DNA of 20,000 nt from IMG/VR virus record IMGVR_UViG_3300025066_000019; one strand, written 5' to 3'. The notes under the pieces were generated by a model. It was given only the letters and a program-made list of their open reading frames with translations. It was not told where the DNA came from and did no database searches. Each line of letters begins with the position of its first letter. Position 1 is the first letter of the stretch. Shown here piece by piece: positions 3,675-18,904 of this stretch. This DNA is from an uncultured virus (IMG/VR IMGVR_UViG_3300025066_000019). Lineage: Duplodnaviria > Heunggongvirae > Uroviricota > Caudoviricetes. The position numbers and the translations under genes are program-made.

Positions 3675-3713
3675 CATAAAATGTTTTACTTACTTACGGA
3701 GATACTGCTAGAG

Positions 3714-4142: not shown

Positions 4143-4238
4143 GGTGGCGACTGGTGACTGGTGTTGCCCTTGGTCTACAAAACCAATGAGGGGTGCGTAA
4201 ACCGCATCCTTGGTAGGTTCGATTCCTATCCGCCACCG
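4143..4238 (+). tRNA. tRNA-Sec-like (selC-like body) with ACA anticodon
   Basis: GGTGGCG(A)/(C)CGCCACC acceptor, 6-bp D-stem with TGGT loop, anticodon loop CTACAAA, 9-bp variable arm, GTAGG-TTCGATT-CCTAT T-arm, G73. Confidence 0.85.
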
Positions 4239-4239
4239 C

Positions 4240-4268
4240 TTGACGAATGAAGGTTGAGGTGTTAAGAT
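4240..4268 (+). promoter_or_regulatory. sigma70-like promoter, possibly giving a leaderless mRNA
   Basis: TTGACG-N17-TAAGAT with extended TG; ATG at 4274 lies at the expected start site. Confidence 0.5.
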
Positions 4269-4273
4269 AAGAT

Positions 4274-5122: not shown

Positions 5123-5442
5123 TGCCTTACATAGAACAAGGTAAGCGTTTATATATTGATGACGACATTAACGAACTTAAACGTGGTTTAATTAGCAACT
5201 TCGGTAGTGAAGACATTGAAGGGGCTCTGCATTACGTAATAGCTCAACTCTTAGAGGTTATTCCTCAATCGTCCAGTCTGTCTGGTGAGTGGAGATATAA
5301 ATACATTAATCGTGCGTCAGGAGTGCTAACACAAGTACAAGAGAACTTCGACGAACGTATCGTTAAACCCTATGAACGAATGGCGATGGAAAAGAATGGT
5401 GACATCAGTAGCTATGCAAAGTTTGACGATTCCCGTAAGTAG
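5122..5442 (+). CDS. conserved phage hypothetical protein (MPYI...G.L.Y...PYE....NGD family)
   Basis: Motif pattern typical of a small phage protein often found beside nucleotide-metabolism genes. Confidence 0.75.
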   Translation: MPYIEQGKRLYIDDDINELKRGLISNFGSEDIEGALHYVIAQLLEVIPQSSSLSGEWRYKYINRASGVLTQVQENFDERIVKPYERMAMEKNGDISSYAKFDDSRK

Positions 5443-5701
5443 TCTCGACTGGAAGTTTCTCACCAAGGTAATTCAACAGCTTGGTAGACTGACAGAGGAA
5501 GAGATTGACCCTATAACGTGGCGTAAAGCTTTTAATAAGGTTGGCGTAACATATGGTGGAGACCTTACTCCTCTTGCTGTTAAAGCCGAAGAGAAGCCTT
5601 ATCTACTTATTACATTTACAACCCCTAACCTGAAGACTGTCAAGCAGCGTATTACCTTTAGTGGTGCTTACGAGCCCGTCAGATTCGAGGCACCTCAGTG
5701 A
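5414..5701 (+). CDS. hypothetical protein
   Basis: ORF fills the gap between neighbours; start uncertain (5372, 5393 or 5414). Confidence 0.6.
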   Translation: MQSLTIPVSSLDWKFLTKVIQQLGRLTEEEIDPITWRKAFNKVGVTYGGDLTPLAVKAEEKPYLLITFTTPNLKTVKQRITFSGAYEPVRFEAPQ

Positions 5702-5973
5702 ATATCCTCTTACATGTTCTAGTATTCCTATTTGTGACGTTTATGTACTCAGGTCTGAGTGCTGTTACTGCCTTATGGACAAAACAGGTGGTGAATGGTA
5801 AGGCATGGGGAAGTTTTATGACAGGAAGTTTGTCGAGATTATTAGCATTGGGTGGGTTGTCCTTTGCGTTCTTATTTGAGCAATTCGTCGTAAGTGCTTT
5901 CGTAGGAATGGTTTTGGGCGAGGGATTAGGTTCCTATCTCGTGGTGAAGTACCATATGATTGATAGCAAGTAA
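5698..5973 (+). CDS. small membrane protein (about 3 TM segments)
   Basis: Hydrophobic 91-aa ORF; GTGA overlap with the upstream stop. Confidence 0.7.
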   Translation: MNILLHVLVFLFVTFMYSGLSAVTALWTKQVVNGKAWGSFMTGSLSRLLALGGLSFAFLFEQFVVSAFVGMVLGEGLGSYLVVKYHMIDSK

Positions 5974-6044
5974 TTATCCCTTTTGTGGTCTTTCGGTGTA
6001 TAATACAGTGTAAGACAATTATTCTGTACAGGAGAACAAGAGAC

Positions 6045-8318
6045 ATGCGTAAAATCCTAATGGCTTTCATGCTAGTTCTCGCAATGTCACTCCCTGCTGC
6101 GGCTTACCCACTGAGTTTGAACGAGATTGCACAAGCAACCTGCCGTGTTGGCGTTTCTGGTGCTTCTGGTTCTGGTACTGCTATTCATGAAGATAAGGAC
6201 TATGTGTACATTCTAACCAATGCTCACGTAGTTGGCAACTCTCGGTCGGGTTTAGTTGAGTTTTTCCCAGGAGGTAGGAAAACAGCTAAGATTCCAGCAA
6301 GTGTCATTTGGCGAGAACACCAAGCTAACACAGATGTAGACTTCGCTATTATGAAGGTAGCTAAGAATACATTGTATGGGTACAAGCCTAGGATTATCCC
6401 CCTGGCTCCCTCGTCCTATCAAATCAAAGCAGGTCAATATATTGCTTCGGTTGGACACCCTGCTGCTCGTTGGGCACAGGCGTGGGAAGGTTACGCATTA
6501 AGAGACGGCAGTAGTCGAGTATTATTTACTCCTCCACCTCTGGGTGGACAGTCTGGTTCTGGCATCTTTGTTAATATTGATGGTTATACCTATCTCGGGG
6601 CAGTTCTTACATGGAGAATTGGAAGAGATGGTAGAGACTCAAAGGGTTATGACCTAGCTCAAGGTGGTGCGATTCCATCAAGTACCTTTGATAAGGTGTT
6701 TGGTGGTAAGGTTTCGTATACCCCAGAGAGAACTCCCTATAATTACCGTGAGGTTAAAACCGTAATCACCAAGATTGGTTATGCTAAAGACTCAAATGGT
6801 AAATGCTGGCCGATAACATATTATGACGATGGTAGCTATGAGGCTAAGGTTCCACCAGGAACCCAAATAGTTCAATGGAACTTGAGCCAGTCTCAATGTA
6901 ATCCATTTGGTTCCCGCCCTGGTCCAGGGTTTTTAGATGGAATCAATCCTTTTACTCCTCCTCGTCGTAATCCTCCTAGTCCTAAGCCAGAAGCACCGGC
7001 TCCTCCGTATATTGACCCAGGAAAACCTGATGTTGTTCCTCCTCCATCTATTGGTGGGTTTGGTCATGGCACCCCAGGCAATGGTATTTATGGTAGTCTT
7101 GAAGAGTTGAAGAAGAAGAATGAAGAACTGCTTAATCAGAATAAGGGGTTGTCTAATCAGTTGACAGATGCCCAGAAGGCACTGGATATTGAACGCACTC
7201 ACTTGTCGGCTCTAAAAGACAGTCTTGATGCCGCACAGGCAGACCTTACTATTAAGGACGGTCAGATTAAGAGACTTGAGGGTTCAGTGAAAGACTTATC
7301 TTCCAAAGTGGAAGGTTTAATTAGTCAAATTGGTCTTAAAACTGCTATCATCAACGATAATGCTGGTAAAATTACTGAACTAAAAGATAAAGCTAAGGCT
7401 GATGCAACAGCTTTGGCTACTGCAAAAGGTAACACTGATGTAGTAATAAAGAATAATGTGTCTCTTCAGACCCAGAAAGACCGACTCAAAAATGGATTAT
7501 GGGGCGTGTCTGGGCTAAGTGGCGTATTATTACTAGTGGGGGGATGGTTCTACAGGAAGAAGCTTAGGCCGAAGCTTGATGGAGCCGCAGAGAATATCAT
7601 TGATAAAGTAGAAGACAAGGTTGAAGATAAAATTGGCGGTTATCTTCCAGACGTTATTAAGGATTTTGGAGATGCTAAGCTTCATAATCTGAAAGACAAA
7701 CTGTTTTCGAAAGTTGATGAAAAGCTTAATGCCGAGAAGGAAGAACTTGGTAAGATTGGTGATGTCCTAGGTAAGATTTCAACATTACTAGAGAAGACTG
7801 ACGAAAGAATGACAACGATGGAGACTAAGGTATCCCTTGTTTCTGCCCCTGTCGTTAATGCACCTACTCAGGTAAGTATTGAGATTGAAAACCCTGTAAT
7901 TCCGCCTGCTGACCCTGTCCCTGCTGAAGGGCTTAGACAGTTTGCAGAGTTATGGAAGGCAGAAGGGCAAGACCCCAAGAAATTGGCACTCTATGGTATT
8001 TTGTACCATGAGGCCGTCAACCTGCTTCGTAAGGGGCAGTTATATGTTAAAGGCAACGACCGTACACAGGGTCAGGAAGCCACCGCTAATAAATTGGACG
8101 AGTGGGTAGAGAATCAAATACTTACTCGACCAGCAGATGTTCTCTTGCAAGGTAATGAAGTAATCCACCAAGTAATGGTTGGTCATCTTTACCGTGAGGC
8201 AGTAGAGAAACTTCGAAACGGAGAATTCCCAGTGTTGGGAGCAAAGGAAACTGCTAATATCATCGACAGATGGGTACAGCAGGAAATGCTAAGACGAATG
8301 AACAAATCAGTAAGATAA
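6045..8318 (+). CDS. exported, membrane-anchored trypsin-like serine protease
   Basis: AGGAG RBS before ATG 6045; signal peptide; catalytic triad LTNAHVV, DFAIM, GGQSGSG; then Pro-rich linker, coiled coil and TM (GLWGVSGLSGVLLLVGGWFY-RKK). Confidence 0.85.
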   Translation: MRKILMAFMLVLAMSLPAAAYPLSLNEIAQATCRVGVSGASGSGTAIHEDKDYVYILTNAHVVGNSRSGLVEFFPGGRKTAKIPASVIWREHQANTDVDFAIMKVAKNTLYGYKPRIIPLAPSSYQIKAGQYIASVGHPAARWAQAWEGYALRDGSSRVLFTPPPLGGQSGSGIFVNIDGYTYLGAVLTWRIGRDGRDSKGYDLAQGGAIPSSTFDKVFGGKVSYTPERTPYNYREVKTVITKIGYAKDSNGKCWPITYYDDGSYEAKVPPGTQIVQWNLSQSQCNPFGSRPGPGFLDGINPFTPPRRNPPSPKPEAPAPPYIDPGKPDVVPPPSIGGFGHGTPGNGIYGSLEELKKKNEELLNQNKGLSNQLTDAQKALDIERTHLSALKDSLDAAQADLTIKDGQIKRLEGSVKDLSSKVEGLISQIGLKTAIINDNAGKITELKDKAKADATALATAKGNTDVVIKNNVSLQTQKDRLKNGLWGVSGLSGVLLLVGGWFYRKKLRPKLDGAAENIIDKVEDKVEDKIGGYLPDVIKDFGDAKLHNLKDKLFSKVDEKLNAEKEELGKIGDVLGKISTLLEKTDERMTTMETKVSLVSAPVVNAPTQVSIEIENPVIPPADPVPAEGLRQFAELWKAEGQDPKKLALYGILYHEAVNLLRKGQLYVKGNDRTQGQEATANKLDEWVENQILTRPADVLLQGNEVIHQVMVGHLYREAVEKLRNGEFPVLGAKETANIIDRWVQQEMLRRMNKSVR

Positions 8319-8333
8319 TTAGGAGATTTCAAA

Positions 8334-8969
8334 ATGCCTACAAGTAACACTTTTCATGGTTCCAATACCCGATTCGCCAATGGCGGACTTCACGCTTTAC
8401 TTGCGGAAATTATTAAATTCCGTAAACAACTAACTGTACGCACTGAGTTTCGTGCCCAGAGTGGTTGGGATAACGCCCTGAATGCCTATATGGTTGAAGG
8501 ACTGGAACATCTAGGTAATACCCTAGAAAACATCACTTATAATCCAGCATCAAGAACTAAGGAAGAGTTAGAAATTGACGCTGCTGACACTACCCGTCAA
8601 TTAGCAGATGATTATGATGCACAAGCCATCTCGTCTGATAATGTTGTAATGCCCCCCGGTCGTGAACGCGATGTTGTGTGGCAACTTGACGGAACAGATG
8701 TTGACATTCCTCAGATGACTACCGACAATTGTCCGAATGACTTTGCTCGCATCTTTATTACAGGACTTGATGGTTTCTTTACTGAAGCCACTCGTGTTGA
8801 CTCTCGATTTAACCGTAACGTGATTACGAAAAACGAGAGCGTAATGTTGCGTAATCTGTTGGACGAACTGTATACTGTATGTCAGCGTAAGGGTGGTGAA
8901 GCCAACCGTACAGACATTGTACAGGGTACTCTTCCAAGTCAAGAGCCTGAAACTTTCCAAGGAGCATAA
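8334..8969 (+). CDS. hypothetical protein
   Basis: AGGAG RBS, 211-aa ORF, followed by a terminator. Confidence 0.85.
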   Translation: MPTSNTFHGSNTRFANGGLHALLAEIIKFRKQLTVRTEFRAQSGWDNALNAYMVEGLEHLGNTLENITYNPASRTKEELEIDAADTTRQLADDYDAQAISSDNVVMPPGRERDVVWQLDGTDVDIPQMTTDNCPNDFARIFITGLDGFFTEATRVDSRFNRNVITKNESVMLRNLLDELYTVCQRKGGEANRTDIVQGTLPSQEPETFQGA

Positions 8970-8997
8970 GGATAAAAAACAATCCTTCTTCAAAGGC

Positions 8998-9035
8998 AAA
9001 GGGGCGGCTCTTTCGAGAGAGTCGTTCCTTTTTTT
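8998..9035 (+). terminator. rho-independent terminator
   Basis: GGGGCGGCTCT/AGAGTCGTTCC hairpin followed by T7. Confidence 0.8.
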
Positions 9036-9045
9036 ATGGATTGAC

Positions 9046-9075
9046 TTGACAAAACCCCGTTGGGGATGCTATAAT
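9046..9075 (+). promoter_or_regulatory. sigma70-type promoter for tmRNA
   Basis: TTGACA-N18-TATAAT with extended TG, ending 11 nt before the tmRNA 5' end. Confidence 0.75.
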
Positions 9076-9086
9076 AAGGTACACAA

Positions 9087-9490
9087 GGGCCATCACTGGT
9101 ATCGACTGGATGGATTGAATTGTGAATTGCGTGTCGTGGTTGGTTAGTTGGCCACGTAAAAAGCTAACCGAAAATCTTAATTGCTAACACAAATAAGAAC
9201 GTTATCGCCAATACCATCGCTGGTGTTGCTCCTCGTTTCGAGGGAAATAGCCTAAACGCCACAAGCGTTTCTGCTATCCGTTCCGTAGCTCTGGTTGCGT
9301 AACAAAGCCTTGGTCGGGCTAAACAGACCAAACGTGTCGGCGTTACCGGCCTAGTCCCAACAATGTGTATGAGTGGGTAAAGACATCCATTACACTGACT
9401 TTGTTTGCTGAGTAAGATTCAACAAACTATACACGTAGACGTTTGCGGTACAGACATAACAGGACTCGGGTTCGACTCCCGAATGGTCCA
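9087..9490 (+). ncRNA. ssrA: tmRNA
   Basis: GGGCCAT/ATGGTCC-A acceptor with G3:U70; TCGAC after the D-loop; pk1 (CGTGG..GGTTAG..CCACG..CTAACC); tag ORF 9183-9302 ending ALVA*; 3' GGAC-TCGGG-TTCGACT-CCCGA. Confidence 0.93.
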
Positions 9491-9510
9491 CTTGACAGAA
9501 AAGGTTTGAA

Positions 9511-9774
9511 ATGGTAGAAAAGATGGTAGGCAGAGACGAGTTGAAAGCTTTACTTGCCCAACATCAAATTGACGAGGTTGCGAAAGTTTTACAGCCGAAG
9601 AAAGGTCAGTCGTTAGCTGACAGAGCGAGGGAGCTAGTCTCTAATCGTTACGAGCTAAGTGAATTACATCTTGGTGCAAACGATGATGTTGAGTATTGGA
9701 CTGACAGGTTAGGGGATGCGAAAGCAGACGTTCTTTATTGTCAGTCTCAACTTAATATGTTAGGAATAGAATGA
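9511..9774 (+). CDS. hypothetical protein (paralog of the next gene)
   Basis: Shares VLQPK.GQSL..RA.EL with 9771..10031; start 9511 or 9523. Confidence 0.7.
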   Translation: MVEKMVGRDELKALLAQHQIDEVAKVLQPKKGQSLADRARELVSNRYELSELHLGANDDVEYWTDRLGDAKADVLYCQSQLNMLGIE

Positions 9775-10031
9775 CGGTTCATCATACAGGTTGCGAAAGA
9801 CATACTAAATTGACAAGTAGTCATCCCATATGCGTTATGTGTGTTTTGAATGAAGTAGCAAGGCTTGAAGGAATACTTGAACAACTTAAGTTTGTTTTAC
9901 AGCCGAAAGAAGGGCAGTCGCTACCACAAAGGGCGAATGAGCTAAGAGACCAGCTAGTAAATGCAGAAACGGATGCTGAATATTACAAAGCAAAATACAA
10001 TGGCACTTGGCCTGAAGGAGATGACGAATGA
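9771..10031 (+). CDS. hypothetical protein
   Basis: ATGA overlaps at both ends; Cys/His-rich N-terminus. Confidence 0.75.
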   Translation: MTVHHTGCERHTKLTSSHPICVMCVLNEVARLEGILEQLKFVLQPKEGQSLPQRANELRDQLVNAETDAEYYKAKYNGTWPEGDDE

Positions 10032-10456
10032 AGAAGTTAGTCTTAGCGATGATGTTGATGGTGACACTTTGCCTTGTCGGCTGTAAAGGTTCGATTGGGT
10101 TTAAGTTTAATTCTAATCTCCACGCTGCTCCGATTGAACAAGCAGAGAATAGGGTTACAACCTTCCTTTATTTTGGTGCTGACTGGTGCCACTACTGTAA
10201 GGTAATGAAAAGCACAACCTTTGCTAATAAAGAAGTTCAAAAAGAAATTGAGAAGCTGAGGTCTTTTAGACATGAAGGAAAGACTGTTGCGGAACAGGCA
10301 GTCTACAAGAAGTATAAAGTCACTGCGTTGCCCACTGTGATGGTGGGTTATTACAACAATGATAAAAAGTGGGTTGAAGTTGACCGCTATGCTGGTTATG
10401 TCGGCCCTGAGAGTTTTTTGAAGTGGCTACGTAAGCATACAAAGAAACCTTCCTAG
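10028..10456 (+). CDS. thioredoxin-family lipoprotein
   Basis: Lipobox LVGC; FGADWCHYC active site; cis-Pro motif ALPT. Confidence 0.88.
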   Translation: MKKLVLAMMLMVTLCLVGCKGSIGFKFNSNLHAAPIEQAENRVTTFLYFGADWCHYCKVMKSTTFANKEVQKEIEKLRSFRHEGKTVAEQAVYKKYKVTALPTVMVGYYNNDKKWVEVDRYAGYVGPESFLKWLRKHTKKPS

Positions 10457-10458
10457 AG

Positions 10459-10749
10459 ATGCACAAATGCGATACGTGTGGTGGTCAGGATTCGCGTTGT
10501 CCCGACTGCTTAACGCCGGAACGATTTATAACAATACTGCAAAGGGCAATATTGGAAGCGAAGAGAACTGGTAAGAAAAAGAAACGTGAAGATTTAGAAG
10601 CGGTGTTAGCCAACCTCCCCCGGTTTCCAGTGATGGCAATGATGGAGGCAGAGGCTAGAAACTTTAGTGAAGAGTTTATGACGACGTTGAAACGCTCCCT
10701 TCGTGTGCGTGAGTTTGGCGACCAAAAATATTCTGACGAAAACGGTTGA
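10459..10749 (+). CDS. hypothetical protein with N-terminal CxxC-CxxC
   Basis: CDTC...CPDC. Confidence 0.7.
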   Translation: MHKCDTCGGQDSRCPDCLTPERFITILQRAILEAKRTGKKKKREDLEAVLANLPRFPVMAMMEAEARNFSEEFMTTLKRSLRVREFGDQKYSDENG

Positions 10750-10774
10750 CAAAACTAAGAACGAAAGGTATAAT
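10746..10774 (+). promoter_or_regulatory. sigma70-type promoter heading the tRNA array
   Basis: TTGACA-N17-TATAAT. Confidence 0.85.
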
Positions 10775-10805
10775 GTGAAGAGAGAAGGCAATAGTCTTCA
10801 AACAT

Positions 10806-10888
10806 GGAAGTGTTGGACAGGTGGTGTGTCTAGCTGGCTGTAAACCAGTCGCCTTCGGGCATTGTGGGTTCGATTCCCTCCATTTCTA
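10806..10888 (+). tRNA. tRNA-Tyr(GTA)
   Basis: GGAAGTG/CATTTCT acceptor, GCTGG-CTGTAAA-CCAGT, GCCTTCGGGC variable arm, TTCGATT T-loop. Confidence 0.88.
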
Positions 10889-10988
10889 CTAGAGGTTGAA
10901 TATACTTGAAGGAATACCGGAGACTAAGCTTGATAGTGACGGCTCCTGACCAAGATAGTATGTTGGTTGCAACCAATCTCTTAATCAT

Positions 10989-11062
10989 TCCGAAGGGCTC
11001 CTCTAGGTGGGGGGACGCGACTGTTAATCGTGATGCGATTGGTTCGAATCCAATCTTCGGAG
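10989..11062 (+). tRNA. tRNA-Asn(GTT)
   Basis: TCCGAAG/CTTCGGA-G, CGCGA-CTGTTAA-TCGTG, TTCGAAT T-loop. Confidence 0.9.
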
Positions 11063-11064
11063 CT

Positions 11065-11146
11065 TGTCGTTCGTTTTAAGATATAAGATACCGCTCGTGA
11101 GAGCGGAGATGGGGATAGGGGATGAAACCCTGAAGGCCTCACGGCA
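11065..11146 (+). ncRNA. candidate four-way-junction ncRNA, copy A
   Basis: TGTCGT/ACGGCA closing stem and GNRA hairpin CCGCTC-GTGA-GAGCGG; homologous to 18468..18566. Confidence 0.6.
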
Positions 11147-11151
11147 TACAT

Positions 11152-11247
11152 CAAGCAGTTGTCCGCTGATGGTCGCGGTGCTAGTCTTGGAAACTAGAGC
11201 CTGTAAGCCGAACTTACGGGTCGGAGGTTCGATTCCTCTCTGCTTGA
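11152..11247 (+). tRNA. tRNA with Pro(TGG) anticodon and a long variable arm
   Basis: CAAGCAG/CTGCTTG-A, CTAGT-CTTGGAA-ACTAG, 9-bp V-arm GCCTGTAAG/CTTACGGGT, TTCGATT T-loop. Confidence 0.85.
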
Positions 11248-11277
11248 CTTGATTTTTTACACTAATAGGAAAAAGAT

Positions 11278-11490
11278 ATGAAAAGAAGAACGGTTAGAAG
11301 TGTACAAGGTAGTTCTCATAGAGGGACTCCAGAAGTAACAGGAAATACCGTTATATGGTTTGGTAAGCACAAAGGTAAGTATGTAGGAGATGTTCCACAT
11401 GATTATCTACGTAGCTTACTAAATCGAACAGGTAGACACACACCAGCTTTTTTGATGTTGTGTTTATATATTAAGAAAATACTAGATTAA
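11278..11490 (+). CDS. small protein with FGKHKG motif (DUF3820 / exonuclease X C-terminal-like)
   Basis: WFGKHKGKYVGDVPHDYL; AGGA RBS. Confidence 0.7.
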   Translation: MKRRTVRSVQGSSHRGTPEVTGNTVIWFGKHKGKYVGDVPHDYLRSLLNRTGRHTPAFLMLCLYIKKILD

Positions 11491-11563
11491 GGCCCGGTGC
11501 TGTATTGGCTAGGCAGTGAGTTTTTCACGCTCACCTATCGGGGTTCGATTCCCCGTCGGGTCG
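11491..11563 (+). tRNA. tRNA-Glu(TTC)
   Basis: GGCCCGG/TCGGGTC, TGAGT-TTTTCAC-GCTCA, CGGGG-TTCGATT-CCCCG. Confidence 0.88.
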
Positions 11564-11602
11564 CTTACTATTATGAAGTAGAAGAAACTAAGGAACGAGA
11601 CA

Positions 11603-12463
11603 ATGGGTTACCTACATATTAATAACCTGTACAAGGACCAGGACATCTTGATGTTTAAAGAGTGTTACGCACTCGAAAAGATTCATGGTACTTCTGCTCA
11701 TATAAAGTACAAAACAGAGACAGGTATTACCTTCTTCTCTGGTGGCGAAAAGCACGCTAGGTTCGTAGAACTGTTTGACGTAGAAGGGCTCACTGAGAAA
11801 CTCAGAGCATTCGGCGTTGAAGAGATTACTATTTTTGGCGAGGCATACGGTGGCAAATGCCTGGGTATGTCTGGCACTTATGGTAAGGAATTAAAATTTG
11901 TAGCCTTCGATGTTAAGATTGATGACTGCTGGTTAGACGTTCCTAAAGCCGAAGCGATTGTGTTGGAGTTAGGCCTCGAATTCGTTTGGTATGTTAGGTG
12001 TATCACCGACATTGACAAATTGGACTTAGAATGCTATGCTGAGTCAAAGCAGGCTATTCGTAACGGAATGGGTCCAGGCAAGAAGATGGAAGGTGTTGTC
12101 CTTCGTCCTATTGTTGAGTTAACCAAAAACAATGGTAGTAGAGTCATTGTTAAACATAAGAGAGACGACTTCAGTGAGACGAAGACCCCTAGGGTTGTTA
12201 GTCCTGAAAAGTTGAAGATATTGTCAGATGCCAAAGAGGTAGCCGAAGAGTGGGTCACCCCAATGAGGCTAAATCACGTACTCGATAAGATTGAGGGTGG
12301 TGCTTCTATGGAGAAAATGAGAACTATCATCTCAGCTATGATTGAAGACGTAAAGCGTGAAGGTGAAGGAGAGATTGAGTGGTCACAGACTGTTGCCAAA
12401 GCGATTGGTAAGGCAACTGCCGTAATGACTAAGCAATACTTCCAGAATAAACTTCATGCGTAA
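11603..12463 (+). CDS. RNA ligase, Rnl2 family
   Basis: Nucleotidyltransferase motifs I (EKIHGT), III (FGE), IIIa (FVAFD), IV (EGVVLRP) and V (VKHK), plus an Rnl2-like C-terminal domain. Confidence 0.9.
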   Translation: MGYLHINNLYKDQDILMFKECYALEKIHGTSAHIKYKTETGITFFSGGEKHARFVELFDVEGLTEKLRAFGVEEITIFGEAYGGKCLGMSGTYGKELKFVAFDVKIDDCWLDVPKAEAIVLELGLEFVWYVRCITDIDKLDLECYAESKQAIRNGMGPGKKMEGVVLRPIVELTKNNGSRVIVKHKRDDFSETKTPRVVSPEKLKILSDAKEVAEEWVTPMRLNHVLDKIEGGASMEKMRTIISAMIEDVKREGEGEIEWSQTVAKAIGKATAVMTKQYFQNKLHA

Positions 12464-12508
12464 CAATACACCGTTGGTCGCGTCGGGTTGCAAATAACGT
12501 GACACCAT

Positions 12509-12577
12509 GGGGGTACTCTATGGGTAGGCGTTGACTCTTGCAAAGTCGATTGACGGGTTCGATTCCCGATACCTCCA
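12509..12577 (+). tRNA. tRNA-Ala(TGC) with a shortened D-arm
   Basis: GGGGGTA/TACCTCC-A with G3:U70, TGACT-CTTGCAA-AGTCG, TTCGATT T-loop; 69 nt. Confidence 0.82.
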
Positions 12578-12662
12578 CTATGAATAAAGAAGAAAGAAAA
12601 GAGTTTTTGTTTTGGTCTGGTTGTATAGCCATTGTAATCCTTTATTGTTTGGTGTTTAGATA

Positions 12663-12863
12663 ATGACCGATGAACTAGCCGCTCGCAGACATTCTTTTAA
12701 ACTAGGAATGCATATTGAAAGACAGTATGCTAACTATGCTAATCTGACATTTAAAGAGAAATGCCAATTAGTAACAGACGTTAGGATTGCCATGGAAATC
12801 TTTGACGGTGACGAAAGAATTGTTAGACTACATGATATGATTGATTTTTTGAACGGGGTCTGA
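12663..12863 (+). CDS. hypothetical protein
   Basis: 66-aa ORF in the co-oriented gene run. Confidence 0.6.
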   Translation: MTDELAARRHSFKLGMHIERQYANYANLTFKEKCQLVTDVRIAMEIFDGDERIVRLHDMIDFLNGV

Positions 12864-12864
12864 G

Positions 12865-13035
12865 ATGGCTGATTCAACAGATGGACGCGAAACAGGAATC
12901 AACTTTATCTCTAGTTTAGACCTAAATAAAAAAGAGGTTAAGAGCGAGACTCAAGAACTCTTTGATTATTTGTTGAGGTCACAAGATAGCTTTTTGGGTA
13001 TAACAGAAAACCCAGATGGTTCAATTGATTATTAA
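12865..13035 (+). CDS. hypothetical protein (56 aa, below the ORF-track cutoff)
   Basis: MADSTDGRETGINF...NPDGSIDY*; abuts the upstream gene and tRNA-Trp. Confidence 0.55.
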   Translation: MADSTDGRETGINFISSLDLNKKEVKSETQELFDYLLRSQDSFLGITENPDGSIDY

Positions 13036-13038
13036 TAC

Positions 13039-13112
13039 AGGCCGTACTTAAAGCACTGGGTGCAATGCAATCTCCAAAGTTGTAATAAGGGGTTCGATTC
13101 CTCTGCGGCCTG
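13039..13112 (+). tRNA. tRNA-Trp(CCA) with an atypical D-arm
   Basis: AGGCCGT/GCGGCCT-G, GCAAT-CTCCAAA-GTTGT, TTCGATT T-loop. Confidence 0.8.
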
Positions 13113-13204
13113 CTTGTCCTCTGAATAAGGAGAACATTAAACGTGAACGCTAAACCGTAAGGTTCCCCCAGGTCAGGGCGTTATGATAAAAAACTGACAA
13201 ACAT

Positions 13205-13273
13205 GCCTTCACCACTGGATGCGGCACCGGGTCTACGAAACCTGGATGCTAGGTTCGATTCCTAGTGGAGGCA
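13205..13273 (+). tRNA. tRNA-Arg(ACG) with a reduced D-arm
   Basis: GCCTTCA/TGGAGGC-A, CCGGGT-CTACGAA-ACCTGG, CTAGG-TTCGATT-CCTAG; 69 nt. Confidence 0.82.
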
Positions 13274-13279
13274 CTTATT

Positions 13280-13355
13280 GGCCCGGTAGAAGCTGTTGGT
13301 TAGTTTCGCCACCCTCTCAAGGTAGAGTTCAGGGGTTCGATTCCCCTTCGGGTCA
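13280..13355 (+). tRNA. tRNA-Glu(CTC)
   Basis: GGCCCGG/TCGGGTC, anticodon loop CTCTCAA, AGGGG-TTCGATT-CCCCT. Confidence 0.87.
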
Positions 13356-13387
13356 CTTACAGAAGAAGTCCTAGCTAAGGAAACCAA

Positions 13388-13588
13388 ATGAAGTATAATC
13401 TACGAGTGATGGTTGAAGGTTCTACAGTTATTCAGTTGAACTACGAAACAAACGACGAAGAGAACGTTGTGAATGAGATGGCGGAAAGATGTAAGGAAGT
13501 TGCCGCTGATGGAGTTTTTGACGGTAATCAGTATTACCCTCCTAACTCAATCAAAAAGATTATTATGAATATCGACGAGGAAGCTTAG
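13388..13588 (+). CDS. hypothetical protein
   Basis: TAAGGA RBS; 66 aa. Confidence 0.75.
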   Translation: MKYNLRVMVEGSTVIQLNYETNDEENVVNEMAERCKEVAADGVFDGNQYYPPNSIKKIIMNIDEEA

Positions 13589-13598
13589 CTTCCTAAAT

Positions 13599-13671
13599 GG
13601 CCTAGGGTCCAAATGGTAATGGAGGTTGATTGTCTATCAACACGCTGCGGGTTCGATACCCGTCTGGGTCG
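13599..13671 (+). tRNA. tRNA-Asp(GTC)
   Basis: GGCCTAG/CTGGGTC-G, TCCA/TGGA D-stem, GTTGA-TTGTCTA-TCAAC. Confidence 0.88.
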
Positions 13672-13777
13672 CTAATCGGAGGTAGAGTGCGAAGTGTACA
13701 ACTGTCGTGTAGACAGTGTGTCCTAGAGTAACGTCTGGGTGCCAATGACAACAATTTGATATTTAGAAAGACGAACT

Positions 13778-14134
13778 ATGAACTGTAAGTGTGGACGTGA
13801 GTTTACAGCCGATGACATTGAGCAGATGGCAGAGGGTTCGTTGACAGAATGCCCCAGGTGTTCTACCCCATATGAGGTAATAACCACTCATGGTTCTGAT
13901 GCTGTCCTTCCTAATAGTATAGACTTTGATGTCTCCTCATTATTTAAGGACGACGTTGATATACTTGGGGAAGTGAGAGAGGTCACCAAGCAGTTGTTTA
14001 ACAAGTATGGGTATGACCCAGATGACTTTATCGTTGATATTAGATGGAGAGTCAAAGATTTGGAGACTGAGGGTAAGTACATAACCGAAAAAATTGAGGG
14101 GGTTAGTATGAGTCACGTTAGGTTTGAGAAATGA
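13778..14134 (+). CDS. hypothetical protein with N-terminal zinc ribbon
   Basis: CKCG...CPRC. Confidence 0.75.
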   Translation: MNCKCGREFTADDIEQMAEGSLTECPRCSTPYEVITTHGSDAVLPNSIDFDVSSLFKDDVDILGEVREVTKQLFNKYGYDPDDFIVDIRWRVKDLETEGKYITEKIEGVSMSHVRFEK

Positions 14135-14204
14135 CTGGTTGGTCGAGTGGTAAGGCAGTAGGTTGCAACCCTACTTTACGCCGGTTCGAATCCGGCACCA
14201 GTCT
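14133..14204 (+). tRNA. tRNA-Cys(GCA)
   Basis: GACTGGT/ACCAGTC-T (U73), GTAGG-TTGCAAC-CCTAC, GCCGG-TTCGAAT-CCGGC. Confidence 0.92.
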
Positions 14205-14218
14205 CTAAAGGAAGTGAC

Positions 14219-14425
14219 ATGGAAGAAGAATTTGATTATGAAATAGACTGTCCATGGTGTGGGCATGAAGTTGGAATAATTCTAGACTGGGAAGGTGGCG
14301 AGTGTCCTAATTGTCATAACGAATACACAGAAGAAGAACGTTGTACGGAAGACTACAGCGATTGCTGGGCGGAACTAGACTGGGACCGCTGGAGACCAGC
14401 AGAAGAACGAAGTAAGCAGGTATAG
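14219..14425 (+). CDS. small acidic zinc-finger protein
   Basis: CPWCG...CPNCH; AGGA RBS. Confidence 0.75.
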   Translation: MEEEFDYEIDCPWCGHEVGIILDWEGGECPNCHNEYTEEERCTEDYSDCWAELDWDRWRPAEERSKQV

Positions 14426-14488
14426 TATAATCTGGCAGTACCACGGTTTCGTACTCCGTAAGTTTCGGTTCGAGTCCGAATGCCTGCT
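14416..14488 (+). tRNA. tRNA-Thr(CGT)
   Basis: GCAGGTA/TGCCTGC, ACGG(T)-TTCGTAC-(T)CCGT, TTCGG-TTCGAGT-CCGAA. Confidence 0.85.
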
Positions 14489-14489
14489 C

Positions 14490-14518
14490 TTGACAAATTG
14501 ACGTTTAGGTGTTATGAT
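14490..14518 (+). promoter_or_regulatory. sigma70-type promoter
   Basis: TTGACA-N17-TATGAT with extended TG; spacer shares TTGACGTT with the 15957 promoter. Confidence 0.6.
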
Positions 14519-14520
14519 AT

Positions 14521-14594
14521 GGGCAATTGGCTTAGATGGTTAAAGCACTACGTTGACATCGTAGAGACCGCTGGTTCGAGTCCAGCATTGCTCA
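14521..14594 (+). tRNA. tRNA-Val(GAC)
   Basis: GGGCAAT/ATTGCTC-A, CTACG-TTGACAT-CGTAG, GCTGG-TTCGAGT-CCAGC. Confidence 0.92.
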
Positions 14595-14624
14595 CTTACT
14601 AATTTTGACTTTAAGGAAAATAAG

Positions 14625-14852
14625 ATGTCTGATTCAAGTACAGGTAAAACGACTGTTAGTTGTTCGCTTCCAAGTGTAATGCTTCTAACGATTATTTTGT
14701 TGGTGTTGCAATACACTGTCGCACCTCAGCTTCCCTGGTGGCTAGTTTGGGGACCACTGATGCTCTTTGGTACAGTCCTAGCAGGTTTCATTGGGTTTGG
14801 ATTGCTTTTACTTGCGATTGGTTTTATTGGAGCGGTTTTTATAGGCGATTAG
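14625..14852 (+). CDS. small membrane protein
   Basis: TAAGGA RBS; two hydrophobic segments with PWWLVWGPL. Confidence 0.8.
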   Translation: MSDSSTGKTTVSCSLPSVMLLTIILLVLQYTVAPQLPWWLVWGPLMLFGTVLAGFIGFGLLLLAIGFIGAVFIGD

Positions 14853-14913
14853 TTCAATGGTAGAACAGGTGTCTTACATGCATCATACGTGGGTTCGATT
14901 CCCTCATTGCCTA
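14843..14913 (+). tRNA. tRNA-Val(TAC)
   Basis: AGGCGAT/ATTGCCT-A, GTTC/GAAC D-stem, GGTGT-CTTACAT-GCATC. Confidence 0.9.
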
Positions 14914-15008
14914 CTAGTCACGATAAATAGCTCTTATGGCTTGTGACCATAATGACTGAATCGTTTGAGTGTTTTGTTGTCGCAAGTAATGGAACACAAG
15001 ACTATTAT

Positions 15009-15082
15009 GGTAGCGTTAGTGTAATGGTTTGCACGTCTCGCTGTGAACGAGAAAGGGTAGGGTTCGATTCCCTCATGTTACC
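15009..15082 (+). tRNA. tRNA-His(GTG)
   Basis: G-1:C73 pair, GTAGCGT/ATGTTAC, TCTCG-CTGTGAA-CGAGA. Confidence 0.9.
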
Positions 15083-15160
15083 CCTTTATGTCCGGTAATG
15101 TCCGGTAACGGTCTAAACAGACCCTAAGTCCTTATTTTTCGATAGGTTTTGTGTCCGGTA

Positions 15161-15760
15161 ATGTCTGAATACAAATGTGAATGTTGTGGTGTTGAACTAA
15201 TAGAAGGTCATCGTTACCGTCTATGTTGGTTTTGTGAGTATACATCATCCACTCGTTTAGATGGCCCAAACGAAGAAATTTCCGTAATCGGTAACAACAA
15301 ACATTGGTTGGAAGAACCAGTTAAAGCCGAAAAGGCTGACCCTGGACCAGAGAATGAGACTGACTTGTCGGCTCTAGAGAAGAGAGTGGTTAGACTAGAA
15401 GAGATTATTGCTGGTTATGAAACGTTTTTTAATTCAGATGCAGAAATAATTGTTGGACTGCCTATTCCTGATGAAGATGAAAACCCCCAAATGAAAGGGT
15501 GGTACGGTTGGGCAGAGGTTGGTTTTGCTAACACAGAAGAGACTCGCGTTGTTATTGAACAACCAGAAGATGATGAAGACGGGGTTGTCCGTACTGGAAC
15601 ATTTAAGGACCAAGGTTTTTGCGGGGGGTTGTGTCAAAGACATACAATACTTGAATACTATTGTTCTGGTCACGAAAGGGATTCCTCTGGGGATACCATT
15701 ACCTGTTTGACTTGTGGCTCTGTACAATATGGAATGAGCGGTAAGTGGCAAAAACCATAG
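15161..15760 (+). CDS. Cys-rich acidic hypothetical protein
   Basis: Probable start ATG 15161 (MSEYKCECC); several CxxC pairs. Confidence 0.7.
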   Translation: MSEYKCECCGVELIEGHRYRLCWFCEYTSSTRLDGPNEEISVIGNNKHWLEEPVKAEKADPGPENETDLSALEKRVVRLEEIIAGYETFFNSDAEIIVGLPIPDEDENPQMKGWYGWAEVGFANTEETRVVIEQPEDDEDGVVRTGTFKDQGFCGGLCQRHTILEYYCSGHERDSSGDTITCLTCGSVQYGMSGKWQKP

Positions 15761-15774
15761 GAGGTTATCAGTAA

Positions 15775-15960
15775 ATGATTTGGGGAATAATTAAACTAAT
15801 TGGCTATTTGTTTTACATTCCTAAGTGTGAACGTACCTGTGAGAACGGGTATCACAAATGGGGAAAATGGGAAAGGTACGCTGTTACCTACCAAATAAAT
15901 CATTGCACCCTATGTAACCGAGAAATAGTAAAACCAAGGTTACGGGGATACGACCCTTGA
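15775..15960 (+). CDS. small hypothetical protein (C..G.H.W...C..C)
   Basis: AGGAGG RBS; 61 aa. Confidence 0.7.
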   Translation: MIWGIIKLIGYLFYIPKCERTCENGYHKWGKWERYAVTYQINHCTLCNREIVKPRLRGYDP

Positions 15961-15985
15961 CAGATTGACGTTGAGAAGCTATAAT
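15957..15985 (+). promoter_or_regulatory. sigma70-type promoter
   Basis: TTGACA-N17-TATAAT. Confidence 0.85.
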
Positions 15986-16003
15986 AAAGAAGAAGAAAGA
16001 CAT

Positions 16004-16074
16004 TGTCCTCGCGATTTGGTTAACCGGCTCGCTCTGATGAAGCAAGTGTCTGGGTTCGACTCCCAGGGGGACAA
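16004..16074 (+). tRNA. tRNA-Ile(GAT)-like, atypical (weak D-arm, G37)
   Basis: TGTCCTC/GGGGACA-A, loop CTGATGA, CTGGG-TTCGACT-CCCAG. Confidence 0.7.
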
Positions 16075-16079
16075 CTCAT

Positions 16080-16170
16080 GGTAGGTACGCTATTGGTTAA
16101 GTAAATTACTCTTGTTCGCAAGTGTTCTTGTGGCTACAGGCCATTGCAGGTTCGAATCCTGCACCTACCT
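16080..16170 (+). tRNA. tRNA-like RNA lacking a canonical anticodon loop
   Basis: Perfect GGTAGGT/ACCTACC acceptor and GCAGG-TTCGAAT-CCTGC T-arm; anticodon arm ends in CTTG-TTCG-CAAG; variable arm GTGGC/GCCAT. Confidence 0.7.
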
Positions 16171-16201
16171 CTTACTAACTATTTTTAACATTTGAAGAAC
16201 G

Positions 16202-16375
16202 ATGGATAAAAACGAAAGAAAGAAGGCTAAAGCTTTCCGAAAGCTGAGGCAGAACAAAAGAAGTCAACAGTATGTTCCTGGTGATACTACTGAAGATGAA
16301 GATACTCACTTTGAGTATAACGAAAAGGATGATTGGGAAGGCGAACGTCGTCCCAAAAATAAAGGTCGTCGATAG
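16202..16375 (+). CDS. small charged hypothetical protein (57 aa)
   Basis: MDKNERKKAKAFRKLRQNKRS...KNKGRR*; fills the gap between tRNAs. Confidence 0.55.
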   Translation: MDKNERKKAKAFRKLRQNKRSQQYVPGDTTEDEDTHFEYNEKDDWEGERRPKNKGRR

Positions 16376-16384
16376 ACGACATAT

Positions 16385-16460
16385 GTGGTCTTGGTTACTG
16401 GTCTGGTGACAGTGCTTGATTGAAGTCCAAGAAAGTTCGGTTCGATTCCGAAAGGCCACG
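16385..16460 (+). tRNA. tRNA-Phe(GAA)
   Basis: GTGGTCT/AGGCCAC-G, loop TTGAAGT, TTCGG-TTCGATT-CCGAA; enlarged D region. Confidence 0.8.
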
Positions 16461-16462
16461 CT

Positions 16463-16665
16463 AGGTATACGGGGTTCCTATAAAAAATGAATTTTTATCA
16501 ATAACATACCCCCCACCTTTTATTAAGGAAATAAAGTAGAAGAGGTTCCTATACCATGACAAACAGCCCCTACGGGGGCTGTATCCAAAAACCTACCTCT
16601 CACTTTTTACGAAACTGGGTACTACGAGGTTCCTATAAAAAAGCATAATTTTATACCTCCCACCC
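16463..16665 (+). repeat. three tandem structured repeats (candidate ncRNA array)
   Basis: Units at 16463-16518, 16533-16606 and 16617-16665, each RRGT-bulge-GRGGT-TCCTATA-variable-T-ACCYC-YC-ACYY. Confidence 0.8.
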
Positions 16666-16680
16666 TAACTTAAGGAAACT

Positions 16681-18462
16681 ATGAAAATGAAAACTCTGGA
16701 ACTATTTAACGCTGTCGTTGCTAAGCCATCAATTGAGCATGTTTGGATTTCCGATAGTGGATACATTATCGAGCCTAACGCTCTTTGGGCGAAGGATAAG
16801 ATTGTAAGTCATTATCGTAAGGCAGAGCTAAACGGCAATGATTTGAACAAGACCTTCCATAAGTCTTGGGATAAGGTTAAGAATAGCTCACGTTTTGAGT
16901 TGTTTGTTGACCAGATTTTTCACTATTTGTCTACTTACGGGACAATGTTCGAGGGGGAGGTTTATATCCCCAATGAAGTATTGGATATTCCCGATGTTGA
17001 GCTTACCTATAAGGTAATTAAGGCGTACACTGTAGAGGAGATGACTAATAAGTGTCTGGGACTACTGCGTTCCGGCATCGCTCTAAAGGAAGAGACCATC
17101 GACGACGTGTTGGCGGTTCTTACTGACGAGTTAGGTTATGTCTTCACTGGTGATGAAGGTGTTCGTAACAAGGAGGCTATCGTCAAGATTGCTGATTTGT
17201 ACGGAGTATTGCCGAAGGAGACAATGGCGTTTTTCCGTTATGTAATTTACCGGGCAACCGGAGAGTCCTTGCTGATTAAGAATGGAAAGTCCATTGCTGC
17301 AATCAAAGCAAGTAACTATAACCCTTCTGCTGCATTCAACCAGTTTGGTGTAGAGAAGTTAGCAGAGATTTTTAATCGGTTCAAGCCTTTGTTCTTGGCT
17401 TTCAAGAGCAAGTGTCCTAAGACCATTAACAAAATTTCAAAGATGTCGAAGTTTTACCATAAGCCATTAGTTCAGAACCCTCTTGGTGTTGTTACTAGTC
17501 AGCAGTTGACGATGAACGACGAGCATTGGTTGGATAACGCAACTCCGTTTGCTTTGTTCAAGGCAATGACCGCTTGTTTTGACAACCTTAAGAACCGAGA
17601 CTCATTCGTTTACCGTATTCGTAATGGTAAGTCTTGGGTAACTGAGCGAGAAGGCAAGACTAACGATAAGGCAACTCTTATCAGTAGCCATAACCTTAAC
17701 TACCTATCGAGCTATATCCATGGTAGATTTGGTTTGGAAGGCAAGAAAATCTTCCTTCCTAAAGATATTGATTATGCTCTACCAACGTCTGAGAAGATGT
17801 TTGTAGGGAACATCCCAACTGGAACCAAGTTCCATGGGGATAAACTCGCTGTTGGTGTGTACTGGAAGAATAGTTGGGGGGCTCGTGACCTTGACCTTTC
17901 TAGTATTGACATCAGTGGAGCAAAGGTTGGTTGGAATTCCTCTTATGACCATCGTGGTCTAACGTATTCTGGTGACATTACTAATGCTCCAAATGGTGCT
18001 GTAGAATACCTCTACGCTAGTAGTGGACAGTTGGGGGGTGCCGCATTGGTACAGAACAACGTTTACATGGGTGATGACGAGTGTTCCTACAAAATCATCA
18101 TTGGGCGTGGTGACGAAATGTCCAGAGATTACATGATGAATCCAAACAACTTGTTTGCTGAAATCAAGTGTCAGTCAGTGCAGAAGCAGACCATCCTTGG
18201 TTTGTTCTTGCCAGGAAGTTTCGTTGTATTAAACTTTGGTGCGGGACATGCTAGGGTTTCCGGCAGTGGTAAAACAACGTCGGTAGCACGTAATGCTCTG
18301 TATCAACAGTGGAATAACTCTCTGACTTTTAATGACTTGGTTACCGTCCTAGGTGCCGAGATTGTTGATAGCCGAGAGGAGGCTGATTACGATTACTCCC
18401 TTGATTCGCTGGAGAAGGATAGCTTTACGAAGCTTTTCAGTGAAGAGGGCGTGTTGGTATAA
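16681..18462 (+). CDS. 593-aa protein with a helical N-terminal region and TerD-like C-terminal domain
   Basis: TAAGGA RBS; C-terminal GVYW....DLDLS...YSGDITNAP.GAVEY resembles the TerD DLD.S and GD...E motifs. The CDS is certain, the family call tentative. Confidence 0.6.
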   Translation: MKMKTLELFNAVVAKPSIEHVWISDSGYIIEPNALWAKDKIVSHYRKAELNGNDLNKTFHKSWDKVKNSSRFELFVDQIFHYLSTYGTMFEGEVYIPNEVLDIPDVELTYKVIKAYTVEEMTNKCLGLLRSGIALKEETIDDVLAVLTDELGYVFTGDEGVRNKEAIVKIADLYGVLPKETMAFFRYVIYRATGESLLIKNGKSIAAIKASNYNPSAAFNQFGVEKLAEIFNRFKPLFLAFKSKCPKTINKISKMSKFYHKPLVQNPLGVVTSQQLTMNDEHWLDNATPFALFKAMTACFDNLKNRDSFVYRIRNGKSWVTEREGKTNDKATLISSHNLNYLSSYIHGRFGLEGKKIFLPKDIDYALPTSEKMFVGNIPTGTKFHGDKLAVGVYWKNSWGARDLDLSSIDISGAKVGWNSSYDHRGLTYSGDITNAPNGAVEYLYASSGQLGGAALVQNNVYMGDDECSYKIIIGRGDEMSRDYMMNPNNLFAEIKCQSVQKQTILGLFLPGSFVVLNFGAGHARVSGSGKTTSVARNALYQQWNNSLTFNDLVTVLGAEIVDSREEADYDYSLDSLEKDSFTKLFSEEGVLV

Positions 18463-18467
18463 AAAAC

Positions 18468-18566
18468 TGTCGTTCGTCTAAAAATTCTCGTGGGATAGTA
18501 ACCACATATAGGGTAAGACGCCATCGGAAGGTGGAAATAGGAGCAACACTTAGACCTCCTGCGGCA
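18468..18566 (+). ncRNA. candidate four-way-junction ncRNA, copy B
   Basis: TGTCGT/GCGGCA closing stem, GTCT/AGAC, CCATC-GGAA-GGTGG, AGGAG/CTCCT; homologous to 11065..11146. Confidence 0.6.
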
Positions 18567-18569
18567 TTC

Positions 18570-18642
18570 GGGTCGGAAGCTAATCTGGTGTAGCGTTCGC
18601 TTGTTAAGCGATTGATGGTGGGTTCGATTCCCACACGGCCCT
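18570..18642 (+). tRNA. second tRNA with GTT (Asn) anticodon, atypical acceptor (G1:C72, U73)
   Basis: GGGTCG/CGGCCC, GCTA/TAGC D-stem, TCGC-TTGTTAA-GCGA, GTGGG-TTCGATT-CCCAC. Confidence 0.8.
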
Positions 18643-18658
18643 CTGAAAGGAAGTTATA

Positions 18659-18904
18659 ATGGATATAAACGAGATTGAAGAAGAACACGGTATGCTGGTA
18701 TTCGAAGTTTGTGGAGAGCCAGTGGTTGGTCAAGAAGTTTTGGTTCCTGTTTATCCTATAAGCAACGAAGATGATTCCCTTGACCAAAATAAGGAAATAA
18801 TGAAAAGATACATTGAGGAGTACGCTAGGCATAATGCCTTTTGTATACAGTATCAACTCCCTAATAGGTTGATACACCCTAATGAATTTATTTTAGGAGC
18901 GTAG
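18659..18904 (+). CDS. hypothetical protein
   Basis: AAGGA RBS; 81 aa; stop overlaps tRNA-Lys. Confidence 0.7.
   Translation: MDINEIEEEHGMLVFEVCGEPVVGQEVLVPVYPISNEDDSLDQNKEIMKRYIEEYARHNAFCIQYQLPNRLIHPNEFILGA

Follow-up and report, generated by a model that had tools for sequence, protein, structure and literature searches.

The 20,000-nt stretch of DNA analysed here (the window) is part of the genome of a large uncultured phage, and two short segments on its + strand raise the question of what an RNA with the outline of a tRNA, and with no anticodon, represents when it lies beside phage tRNA genes. The first of these, EL1 (copy 1), is 82 nt in length (11065..11146, +) and was delimited using its sequence, MFE fold, alignment and pair counts. 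The second, EL2 (copy 2), is 99 nt in length (18468..18566, +) and was delimited using its sequence, MFE fold, match to a model of copy 1, and pair counts. Seventeen tRNA genes were called in the window by ARAGORN, several of those in the array being degenerate and scoring only 19-32 bits, and a tmRNA was found with Rfam (9087-9493). A tRNA-Sec-like gene (4143-4237, +) scored 68.9 bits with the tRNA-Sec model (cut-off 47) and received no ARAGORN call. The proteins encoded in the window include an RNA ligase, a dUTPase, a NUDIX hydrolase, a GNAT acetyltransferase and a thioredoxin-like protein, and many of the ORFs have no known family. One such ORF of 593 aa (16681..18462, +) was used as the query to fetch related phages, and its homologues are found on IMG/VR contigs of up to 326 kb that also carry tRNA arrays and a tmRNA.

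Several other features were observed in this part of the genome. Three tRNA-like genes with normal GGUUCGAUUCC-type T arms (13040-13110, 13205-13274 and 16080-16170, all +) were not called by ARAGORN. The first scored 28.4 bits with the tRNA-Sec model and the third 23.3 bits with the tRNA model, both below the respective cut-offs, and the second had no + strand match to the tRNA clan, its likeness to a tRNA coming from its fold. The tRNA called by ARAGORN at 16385-16461 (+) has an unusual anticodon, AUU (Asn codon AAU), and scored 19.8 bits on the tRNA model. Ahead of the 593-aa ORF, 219 nt are free of genes and contain three exact copies of GGTTCCTATA (16473-16482, 16544-16553 and 16628-16637, +), spaced 71 and 84 bases start to start, and with one mismatch allowed there were 5 copies against 1.2 expected. 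These repeats are possibly phage-specific promoters or protein-binding sites.

When each copy was folded alone (MFE, + strand), EL1 and EL2 formed the same four-way junction, and the RNAalifold consensus of the two was again this junction, with helices of 6/4/5/4 bp and linkers of 2/1/4/0 nt. The suggestion of the earlier note that a structured RNA of tRNA-like topology is present twice was thereby confirmed. The MFE z-scores were modest (-2.33 for EL1 and -0.87 for EL2), and the reverse strands of the two elements did not form this junction. In the MFE structures P1 has 6 bp, P2 has 6 or 4-5 bp, P3 has 6 or 5 bp, and P4 has 4 or 5 bp, and P3 is capped in both copies by a GNRA tetraloop. In EL1 (all parts on the + strand), P1 (11065-11070/11141-11146) is followed by a UC linker (11071-11072) equivalent to tRNA U8 C9, by P2 (11073-11078/11084-11089, loop 11079-11083) and a single A (11090), by P3 (11091-11096/11101-11106) with its GUGA loop (11097-11100), by an AGAU linker (11107-11110), and by P4 (11111-11114/11137-11140), the 22-nt loop of which contains an inner hairpin. 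In EL2 (likewise on the + strand), P1 (18468-18473/18561-18566) and UC (18474-18475) are followed by P2, formed by GUCU (18476-18479) and AGAC (18516-18519), whose 36-nt loop holds an inner GUGG/CCAC hairpin and ends at its 3' side in GGGUA. A single G (18520) then leads to P3 (18521-18525/18530-18534) with its GGAA loop (18526-18529), an AAAU linker (18535-18538), and P4 (18539-18543/18556-18560) with a 12-nt loop. An alternative pairing in EL2, of UUAGAC in the P4 loop with GUCUAA in P2, is absent from EL1 and was treated as chance. A protein-coding reading was also rejected, the overlapping ORFs (62, 57 and 146 aa) having no Pfam match below an E-value of 0.09.

Both copies start with TGTCGTTCGT (11065-11074 and 18468-18477) and end in RCGGCAT, as the earlier note had read them, and within the window the exact 10-mer was found only in EL1 and EL2. 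In 20 kb many 10-mers are expected to recur, so the repeat of TGTCGTTCGT alone carries little weight. The copies are identical in their first 10 bases and in the 3' CGGCAT and have diverged elsewhere, the loops differing completely, with further common blocks at UAAGAY, the CC at the start of P3, and GGARAU. Over the first 14 bases EL1 and EL2 agree at 12 positions, while the best of 181 tRNAs agrees at 10 of the 14; these tRNAs were those called by ARAGORN in the fetched related-phage loci and in the window itself. As far as sequence comparison can tell, EL1 and EL2 are closer to each other than to any of the 181 tRNAs compared. The window was searched with a covariance model (R1) for which EL1 was the only input and which contained no tRNA, and EL2 was the best other match (19.8 bits, E ~5e-4), the next matches being true tRNAs at 12 bits or less (tRNA-His and tRNA-Val). 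The best match of this model in related phages was a true tRNA at 19.2 bits (L056 9714-9782) against the 19.8 bits of EL2, so the R1 score alone does not mark EL2 as the closer relative.

The two sequences were aligned under the guidance of the copy-1 model (alignment A4), and 42 of the 44 pair cells were found to hold standard pairs. The compensatory changes that had been claimed for the two copies were recovered: four pairs had changed on both sides (two in P3 and two in P4) and five showed compatible one-sided changes, and 8 of the 13 stem bases that changed between EL1 and EL2 lie in the four compensatory pairs. Sliding the 3' partners by 1-3 columns dropped pairing to 36-57%, and the observed covariation was reached in 26 of 500 column shuffles. 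With n=2 sequences from one phage lineage the statistics are weak and the covariation is suggestive, and the evidence for selection, which comes from two paralogues of that lineage, is thin. Since the D and T arms are not conserved between EL1 and EL2, a shared tRNA-like elbow is doubtful.

The helices and linkers of the consensus are those of a tRNA cloverleaf, and the arrangement of four helices with linkers of about 2, 1, 4-5 and 0 nt was found both by MFE folding and by RNAalifold. The positions that mark the tRNA core are also present in both copies, with UC after P1 supplying U8, a G opening P2 as G10, and an A or G between P2 and P3 as purine 26, and the conserved 5' block corresponds to tRNA positions 2-11, including U8, C9 and G10. 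Positions 7-15 of EL2 (TTCGTCTAA) are identical in 3 of the 181 ARAGORN tRNAs, two of which are tRNA-Glu(UUC), so that the match of this segment to tRNA-Glu(UUC) of related phages is 9/9. EL2 has GUCU/AGAC as its D stem and a D loop that opens with A and closes with GGGUA around an inserted hairpin, the two ends resembling A14...G18G19..A21. The variable region is AGAU in EL1 and AAAU in EL2, and AGAU is also found in a tRNA-Glu of a related phage. In related phages nearly all matches of R1 fell on tRNA genes, at 10-19.2 bits. Because the stems and linkers, the R1 matches, the 5' block and the gene spacing all agree, EL1 and EL2 are, on the evidence of their sequences, strongly derived tRNAs of the glutamate-tRNA type and not an independent new fold.

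Compared with a tRNA of the glutamate type (RF00005), EL1 and EL2 are alike in their linkers of 2/1/4/0 nt, in U8, C9, G10 and the GUCU/AGAC D stem, in purine 26, in a 5-bp anticodon stem, a 4-nt variable region and a T stem of 4-5 bp, and in their spacing within the array. They differ in having a GNRA loop, no T-loop sequence, and an acceptor stem of 6 bp in both copies and not 7, or alternatively one of seven positions with a mismatch at 1:72, where the flanking bases give U-U in EL1 and C-U in EL2. The 7-nt anticodon loop with U33 and an anticodon is absent, and GUGA (EL1) and GGAA (EL2) stand in its place. The T-position loops, 22 nt in EL1 and 12 nt in EL2, have no UUCRA in register, and the T loop GUUCRANY is absent. 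The D loop is closed up in EL1 and expanded by about 28 nt in EL2, and of the two copies only EL2 has, as a counterpart of G18G19, a GGG before the 3' side of the D stem. Neither element was among the 17 window tRNA genes called by ARAGORN, and RF00005, for which the cut-off for membership is 29 bits, gave no match at E<=10, including in searches confined to the 90-105 nt around each element. EL1 and EL2 cannot decode. In their derivation an acceptor-like stem, U8-C9, the D stem from G10, purine 26, the 5-bp anticodon stem, the 4-nt variable region and the T stem have been kept, while the anticodon loop has been replaced by a GNRA tetraloop and the T and D loops by non-canonical loops that are expanded or, in the case of the EL1 D loop, shortened.

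Both elements lie in close contact with tRNA genes. EL1 begins 1 nt after a tRNA-Asn(GUU) (10989..11063, +; called by ARAGORN, 39.7 bits with Rfam) and ends 5 nt before a tRNA with anticodon UGG (11152..11248, +; called by ARAGORN), which is atypical in its length of 97 nt and its long variable arm. EL2 begins 5 nt after the stop codon of the 593-aa ORF and ends 3 nt before an ordinary tRNA-Asn(GUU) (18570..18643, +; called by ARAGORN, 46.5 bits with Rfam). It had been claimed that each copy ends 3-5 nt before an atypical tRNA; the spacing was correct for both copies, but the following tRNA is atypical only in the case of EL1, the tRNA-Asn after EL2 being normal. The tRNA at 11152-11248 was a better fit to the tRNA-Sec model, where it scored 32.9 bits (cut-off 47), than to the tRNA model. 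Its D stem apparently has 6 bp and its UGG anticodon corresponds to proline codons, and it could be a type-II or 'allo'-like tRNA that places another amino acid at CCN codons.

A consensus scan located a sigma-70-type promoter (10746..10774, +; TTGACA, 17-nt spacer, TATAAT, 12/12 positions) at the head of a unit made up of tRNA-Tyr, a 99-nt spacer, tRNA-Asn, EL1 and the type-II tRNA(UGG), and the same scan found no + strand terminator-like site between this promoter and EL1. Promoters with 12/12 matches to the sigma-70 consensus were observed at three places (9046-9075, 10746-10774 and 15957-15985, all +), just upstream of the tmRNA, tRNA-Tyr and tRNA-Ile respectively. The 99-nt spacer between tRNA-Tyr and tRNA-Asn (10890-10988, +) folds into a three-way junction at -23 kcal/mol and resembles neither a tRNA nor EL1 and EL2. 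In all 17 ARAGORN tRNAs a C and then a U directly follow the discriminator base, and none encodes a full CCA; this C-U looks like a phage-specific 3'-processing signal. If EL1 and EL2 are read with an unpaired 1:72 (U-U and C-U, respectively), both have the C at position 74 and lack the U at 75, so that their 3' flanks are only partly consistent with the tRNA pattern.

In the sequences searched, no homologue of EL1 or EL2 was found outside this phage lineage. A blastn comparison with GenBank phages matched only the tRNA-Tyr in the copy-1 region and nothing in the copy-2 region. Two strict IUPAC pattern scans of IMG/VR gave 0 matches and 1 chance match in coding DNA (L057). Model R2 found no homologue in 25 loci around homologues of the 593-aa ORF, in 5 whole related phage records or in 11 metagenome loci, and R1, run with filters off, matched true tRNAs in one more whole record and in ~290 kb taken from the tRNA arrays of related phages and the regions next to them. 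With a cloverleaf-plus-GNRA descriptor, the only matches outside the window were chance matches in AT-rich or coding DNA, the loose form of the descriptor fitting ~20 places in 0.29 Mb of other DNA on both strands; in the window it fitted EL1, EL2 and one spurious draw over a tRNA. Finally, 25 inter-tRNA gaps among 171 tRNAs from 23 sources (22 loci and the window) were folded, and none outside the window was EL-like, several of the gaps being tRNAs overlooked by ARAGORN. The nearest relatives share only 45-67% identity in the 593-aa protein (31% in one outlier locus) and 51-65% in the RNA ligase, so the absence of the elements there is weak evidence. A metagenome contig (L034) was 99.7% identical to window positions 3603-20000, and in it EL1 is unchanged and EL2 has one substitution, at an unpaired D-loop base. 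A lack of further homologues or of covariation was named in the earlier note as grounds for giving up its proposal; the first holds outside this lineage in the sequences searched, and the covariation seen between the two copies is suggestive. In one related phage, a 64-nt gap between tRNA-Gly and tRNA-Phe (L047 8709-8772) folds with an acceptor-like stem and a CUUCCAA loop (the Gly UCC anticodon loop) and seems to be without a T arm, and may be another kind of truncated tRNA look-alike.

The explanation that we consider on balance probable, with modest confidence, is that EL1 and EL2 are paralogous, tRNA-derived, non-decoding small RNAs, selected as mimics and cut out together with tRNAs. The main rival to this explanation is pseudogene decay, by which the elements would be old copies of a tRNA-Glu-type gene that lost their anticodon and T loops by mutation and are carried along in a loosely packed genome. 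Their tRNA ancestry is clear, the low scores of several array tRNA genes fit a relaxed constraint, no homologues were found in the related phages searched, and the copies differ freely in their D and T arms, all of which agrees with decay. Neutral decay should break stems, however, and here 42 of 44 cells remain paired in spite of 13 changed stem bases; a GNRA tetraloop is located exactly at the anticodon position in both copies, and the copies agree fully in the first 10 bases and the 3' CGGCAT where all else has diverged. We therefore regard decay as unlikely, though it is the alternative to be taken most seriously.

A lower probability still is given to a cis-acting processing or leader element, in which EL1 and EL2 would provide a cut-here signal or a folding aid for the next tRNA or for the upstream mRNA at its 3' end, and the RNA once excised would have no role. 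The short distance of both copies from the following tRNA, and the position of EL2 just behind the stop codon of the 593-aa ORF, would be expected of such an element. Because EL1 lies between two true tRNAs and EL2 directly before one, a cut-here role would be redundant, as the adjoining tRNAs already supply RNase P and 3'-processing sites. Of the 17 tRNAs that ARAGORN called in the window, the remaining 15 are not preceded by an element of this type. The processing element offered by the earlier note as one possible function was set aside for this redundancy, which makes it a quite improbable account of the two copies.

The same note had also considered a ribozyme, and a new self-cleaving ribozyme, or some other catalytic or ligand-binding four-way-junction RNA, would have come to its cloverleaf outline by chance, with the 5' decamer serving as an active or cleavage site. 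A catalytic RNA might show the pattern observed here, in which the first 10 nt and the 3' CGGCAT are strictly conserved beside freely varying helices, and no known family explains EL1 and EL2. At the gathering score no Rfam family lay over either element in the whole window, and at E<=10, in searches of both regions, of 9500-20000 and of each element alone, only noise was found (PAGEV at 7.8 bits and RAGATH-12 at 14.2 bits), which is the outcome the earlier note had anticipated in calling the RNA undescribed. That description holds in so far as no Rfam family applies, and not in so far as it implied an independent new fold, since the elements appear to be derived from a glutamate-type tRNA. 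No match over EL1 or EL2 was obtained at E<=10 with the Rfam ribozymes (hammerhead, twister, twister-sister, hatchet, pistol, hairpin and HDV-like) or with the Rfam riboswitch families, and the HDV-like, hammerhead and hairpin-ribozyme layouts, when compared with the sequences by eye, did not appear to fit. Against catalysis there is also the fact that the conserved block equals tRNA positions 2-11 with U8 and G10 and matches the tRNA-Glu D arm, and that no internal loops or pseudoknot candidates are common to both copies. A ribozyme or ligand-binding RNA is thus very unlikely.

The RAGATH-12 family (RF03149) was considered for EL2 and rejected. The score of 14.2 bits compares with a cut-off of 75 for this family, which is marked by the conserved 5' block CUGUCUGGAGUG, and over EL1 there was no match to RAGATH-12. 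The likeness to EL2, which is weak over the whole model, consists of a UAGUA-CAC-UAUAGG block, a GNRA hairpin, a 4-nt linker and a second hairpin. The model gave 13-15 bits at random places in related phages (4 of 5 records) and reached the same noise level in 12 of 14 control genomes, and because of these equal scores the EL2 match is regarded as noise. Eleven genuine RAGATH-12 examples from IMG/VR are 5' leaders that run into an RBS and ATG, and are without the tRNA-like 5' half. As a separate observation on this family, all 11 examples (L058-L068) lie directly upstream of an ORF, an ATG comes 3-6 bases after their 3' AGGUAA, and another conserved block occurs ~24 nt upstream of the start of the Rfam model. 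This suggests that RAGATH-12 is a cis-regulatory leader; a literature search for RAGATH-12 was without result.

That two unrelated spacers merely happen to contain the same 10-mer and allow similar folds to be drawn, as the expected frequency of repeated 10-mers in 20 kb and the ~20 places in 0.29 Mb that fit the loose descriptor on both strands might allow, is extremely improbable, given that in the window the descriptor gave only EL1, EL2 and one spurious draw, that the copy-1 model finds copy 2 at E ~5e-4, that both copies lie within 5 nt of a tRNA start, and that they have GNRA at the same place and the UAAGAY and GGARAU blocks in common.

If EL1 and EL2 are selected tRNA mimics, they would be transcribed as part of phage tRNA operons, and the host RNase P would cut at the 5' end of each element and at the 5' end of the next tRNA, with 3' trimming to follow. 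The product would be a stable, tRNA-shaped RNA that is unable to read codons, and it would most plausibly act as a mimic, one example being a sponge or decoy directed at a factor that recognises the acceptor stem together with the tRNA core. The acceptor stem and the U8-G10 core are strictly conserved and the rest is free to change, which suggests that a partner reads that part of the molecule, and it is on account of this conservation, together with the redundancy of a pure cut-here role, that a mimic or decoy is favoured. The 'tRNA mimic' of the earlier note is, given the tRNA derivation, the part of its guess that holds. The decoy role is one that we infer, and a fuller version of it, in which a mimic family built on the tRNA-Glu body uses its conserved acceptor stem and core to inhibit or divert a host factor recognising tRNA bodies, is proposed tentatively and is in our view unlikely to be correct in all its parts. 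The factor could be a tRNA-targeting defence nuclease, or an enzyme that processes or modifies tRNA.

Non-decoding RNAs of tRNA shape are known from other systems. These include mascRNA from the 3' end of MALAT1 (RF01684), plant mitochondrial t-elements and mitochondrial tRNA punctuation, folds for which recognition by RNase P and RNase Z is assumed or has been demonstrated, and which mark the ends of long transcripts where there is no tRNA. EL1 and EL2 are likewise tRNA-shaped and non-decoding, but true tRNAs adjoin both copies, and the mascRNA model matched only a real tRNA in the window (11491-11562, 25.2 bits) and neither element. The tRNA cluster of phage T4 contains the stable RNAs known as species 1 and 2, which have no assigned function and are processed together with the tRNAs. 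They are similar to EL1 and EL2 as small RNAs inside a phage tRNA cluster, a likeness drawn from their description only, and to our knowledge they have not been described as anticodon-less cloverleaves. YrlA RNAs, which are also found in some phages, have canonical T and D loops and a Ro60-binding stem, while EL1 and EL2 are without the T and D loop motifs; no Rfam match to a Y-RNA was found in the regions searched, nor a TROVE (Ro60) domain among the 21 window ORFs scanned. YrlA is described as a bacterial Y-RNA-like tRNA mimic, a non-coding RNA whose tRNA-like module does not decode (PMC4201824; bioRxiv 10.1101/312249). In another paper, a passage that refers to 'anticodon-less' tRNA concerns the cleavage product of a Schlafen-like nuclease and not a gene (PMC13434031). 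No description of phage-encoded anticodon-less cloverleaves was found in those parts of the literature that were searched, and there is none in Rfam 15.

Large phages are now considered to use their tRNA sets to counter host codon bias and tRNA-cutting defences. An RNA of tRNA shape that has deliberately abandoned decoding would put that scaffold to another use, as a mimic and not as an adaptor. The weight of a single case, two paralogues in one uncultured phage lineage, is limited. If the fuller decoy reading is true, a decoy of this kind would protect or tune the large tRNA set of the phage itself, and EL1 and EL2 would point to a widespread and undescribed class of phage tRNA-mimic RNAs. 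As neither ARAGORN nor the Rfam tRNA model picks up genes of this type, tRNA arrays may hide more of them.
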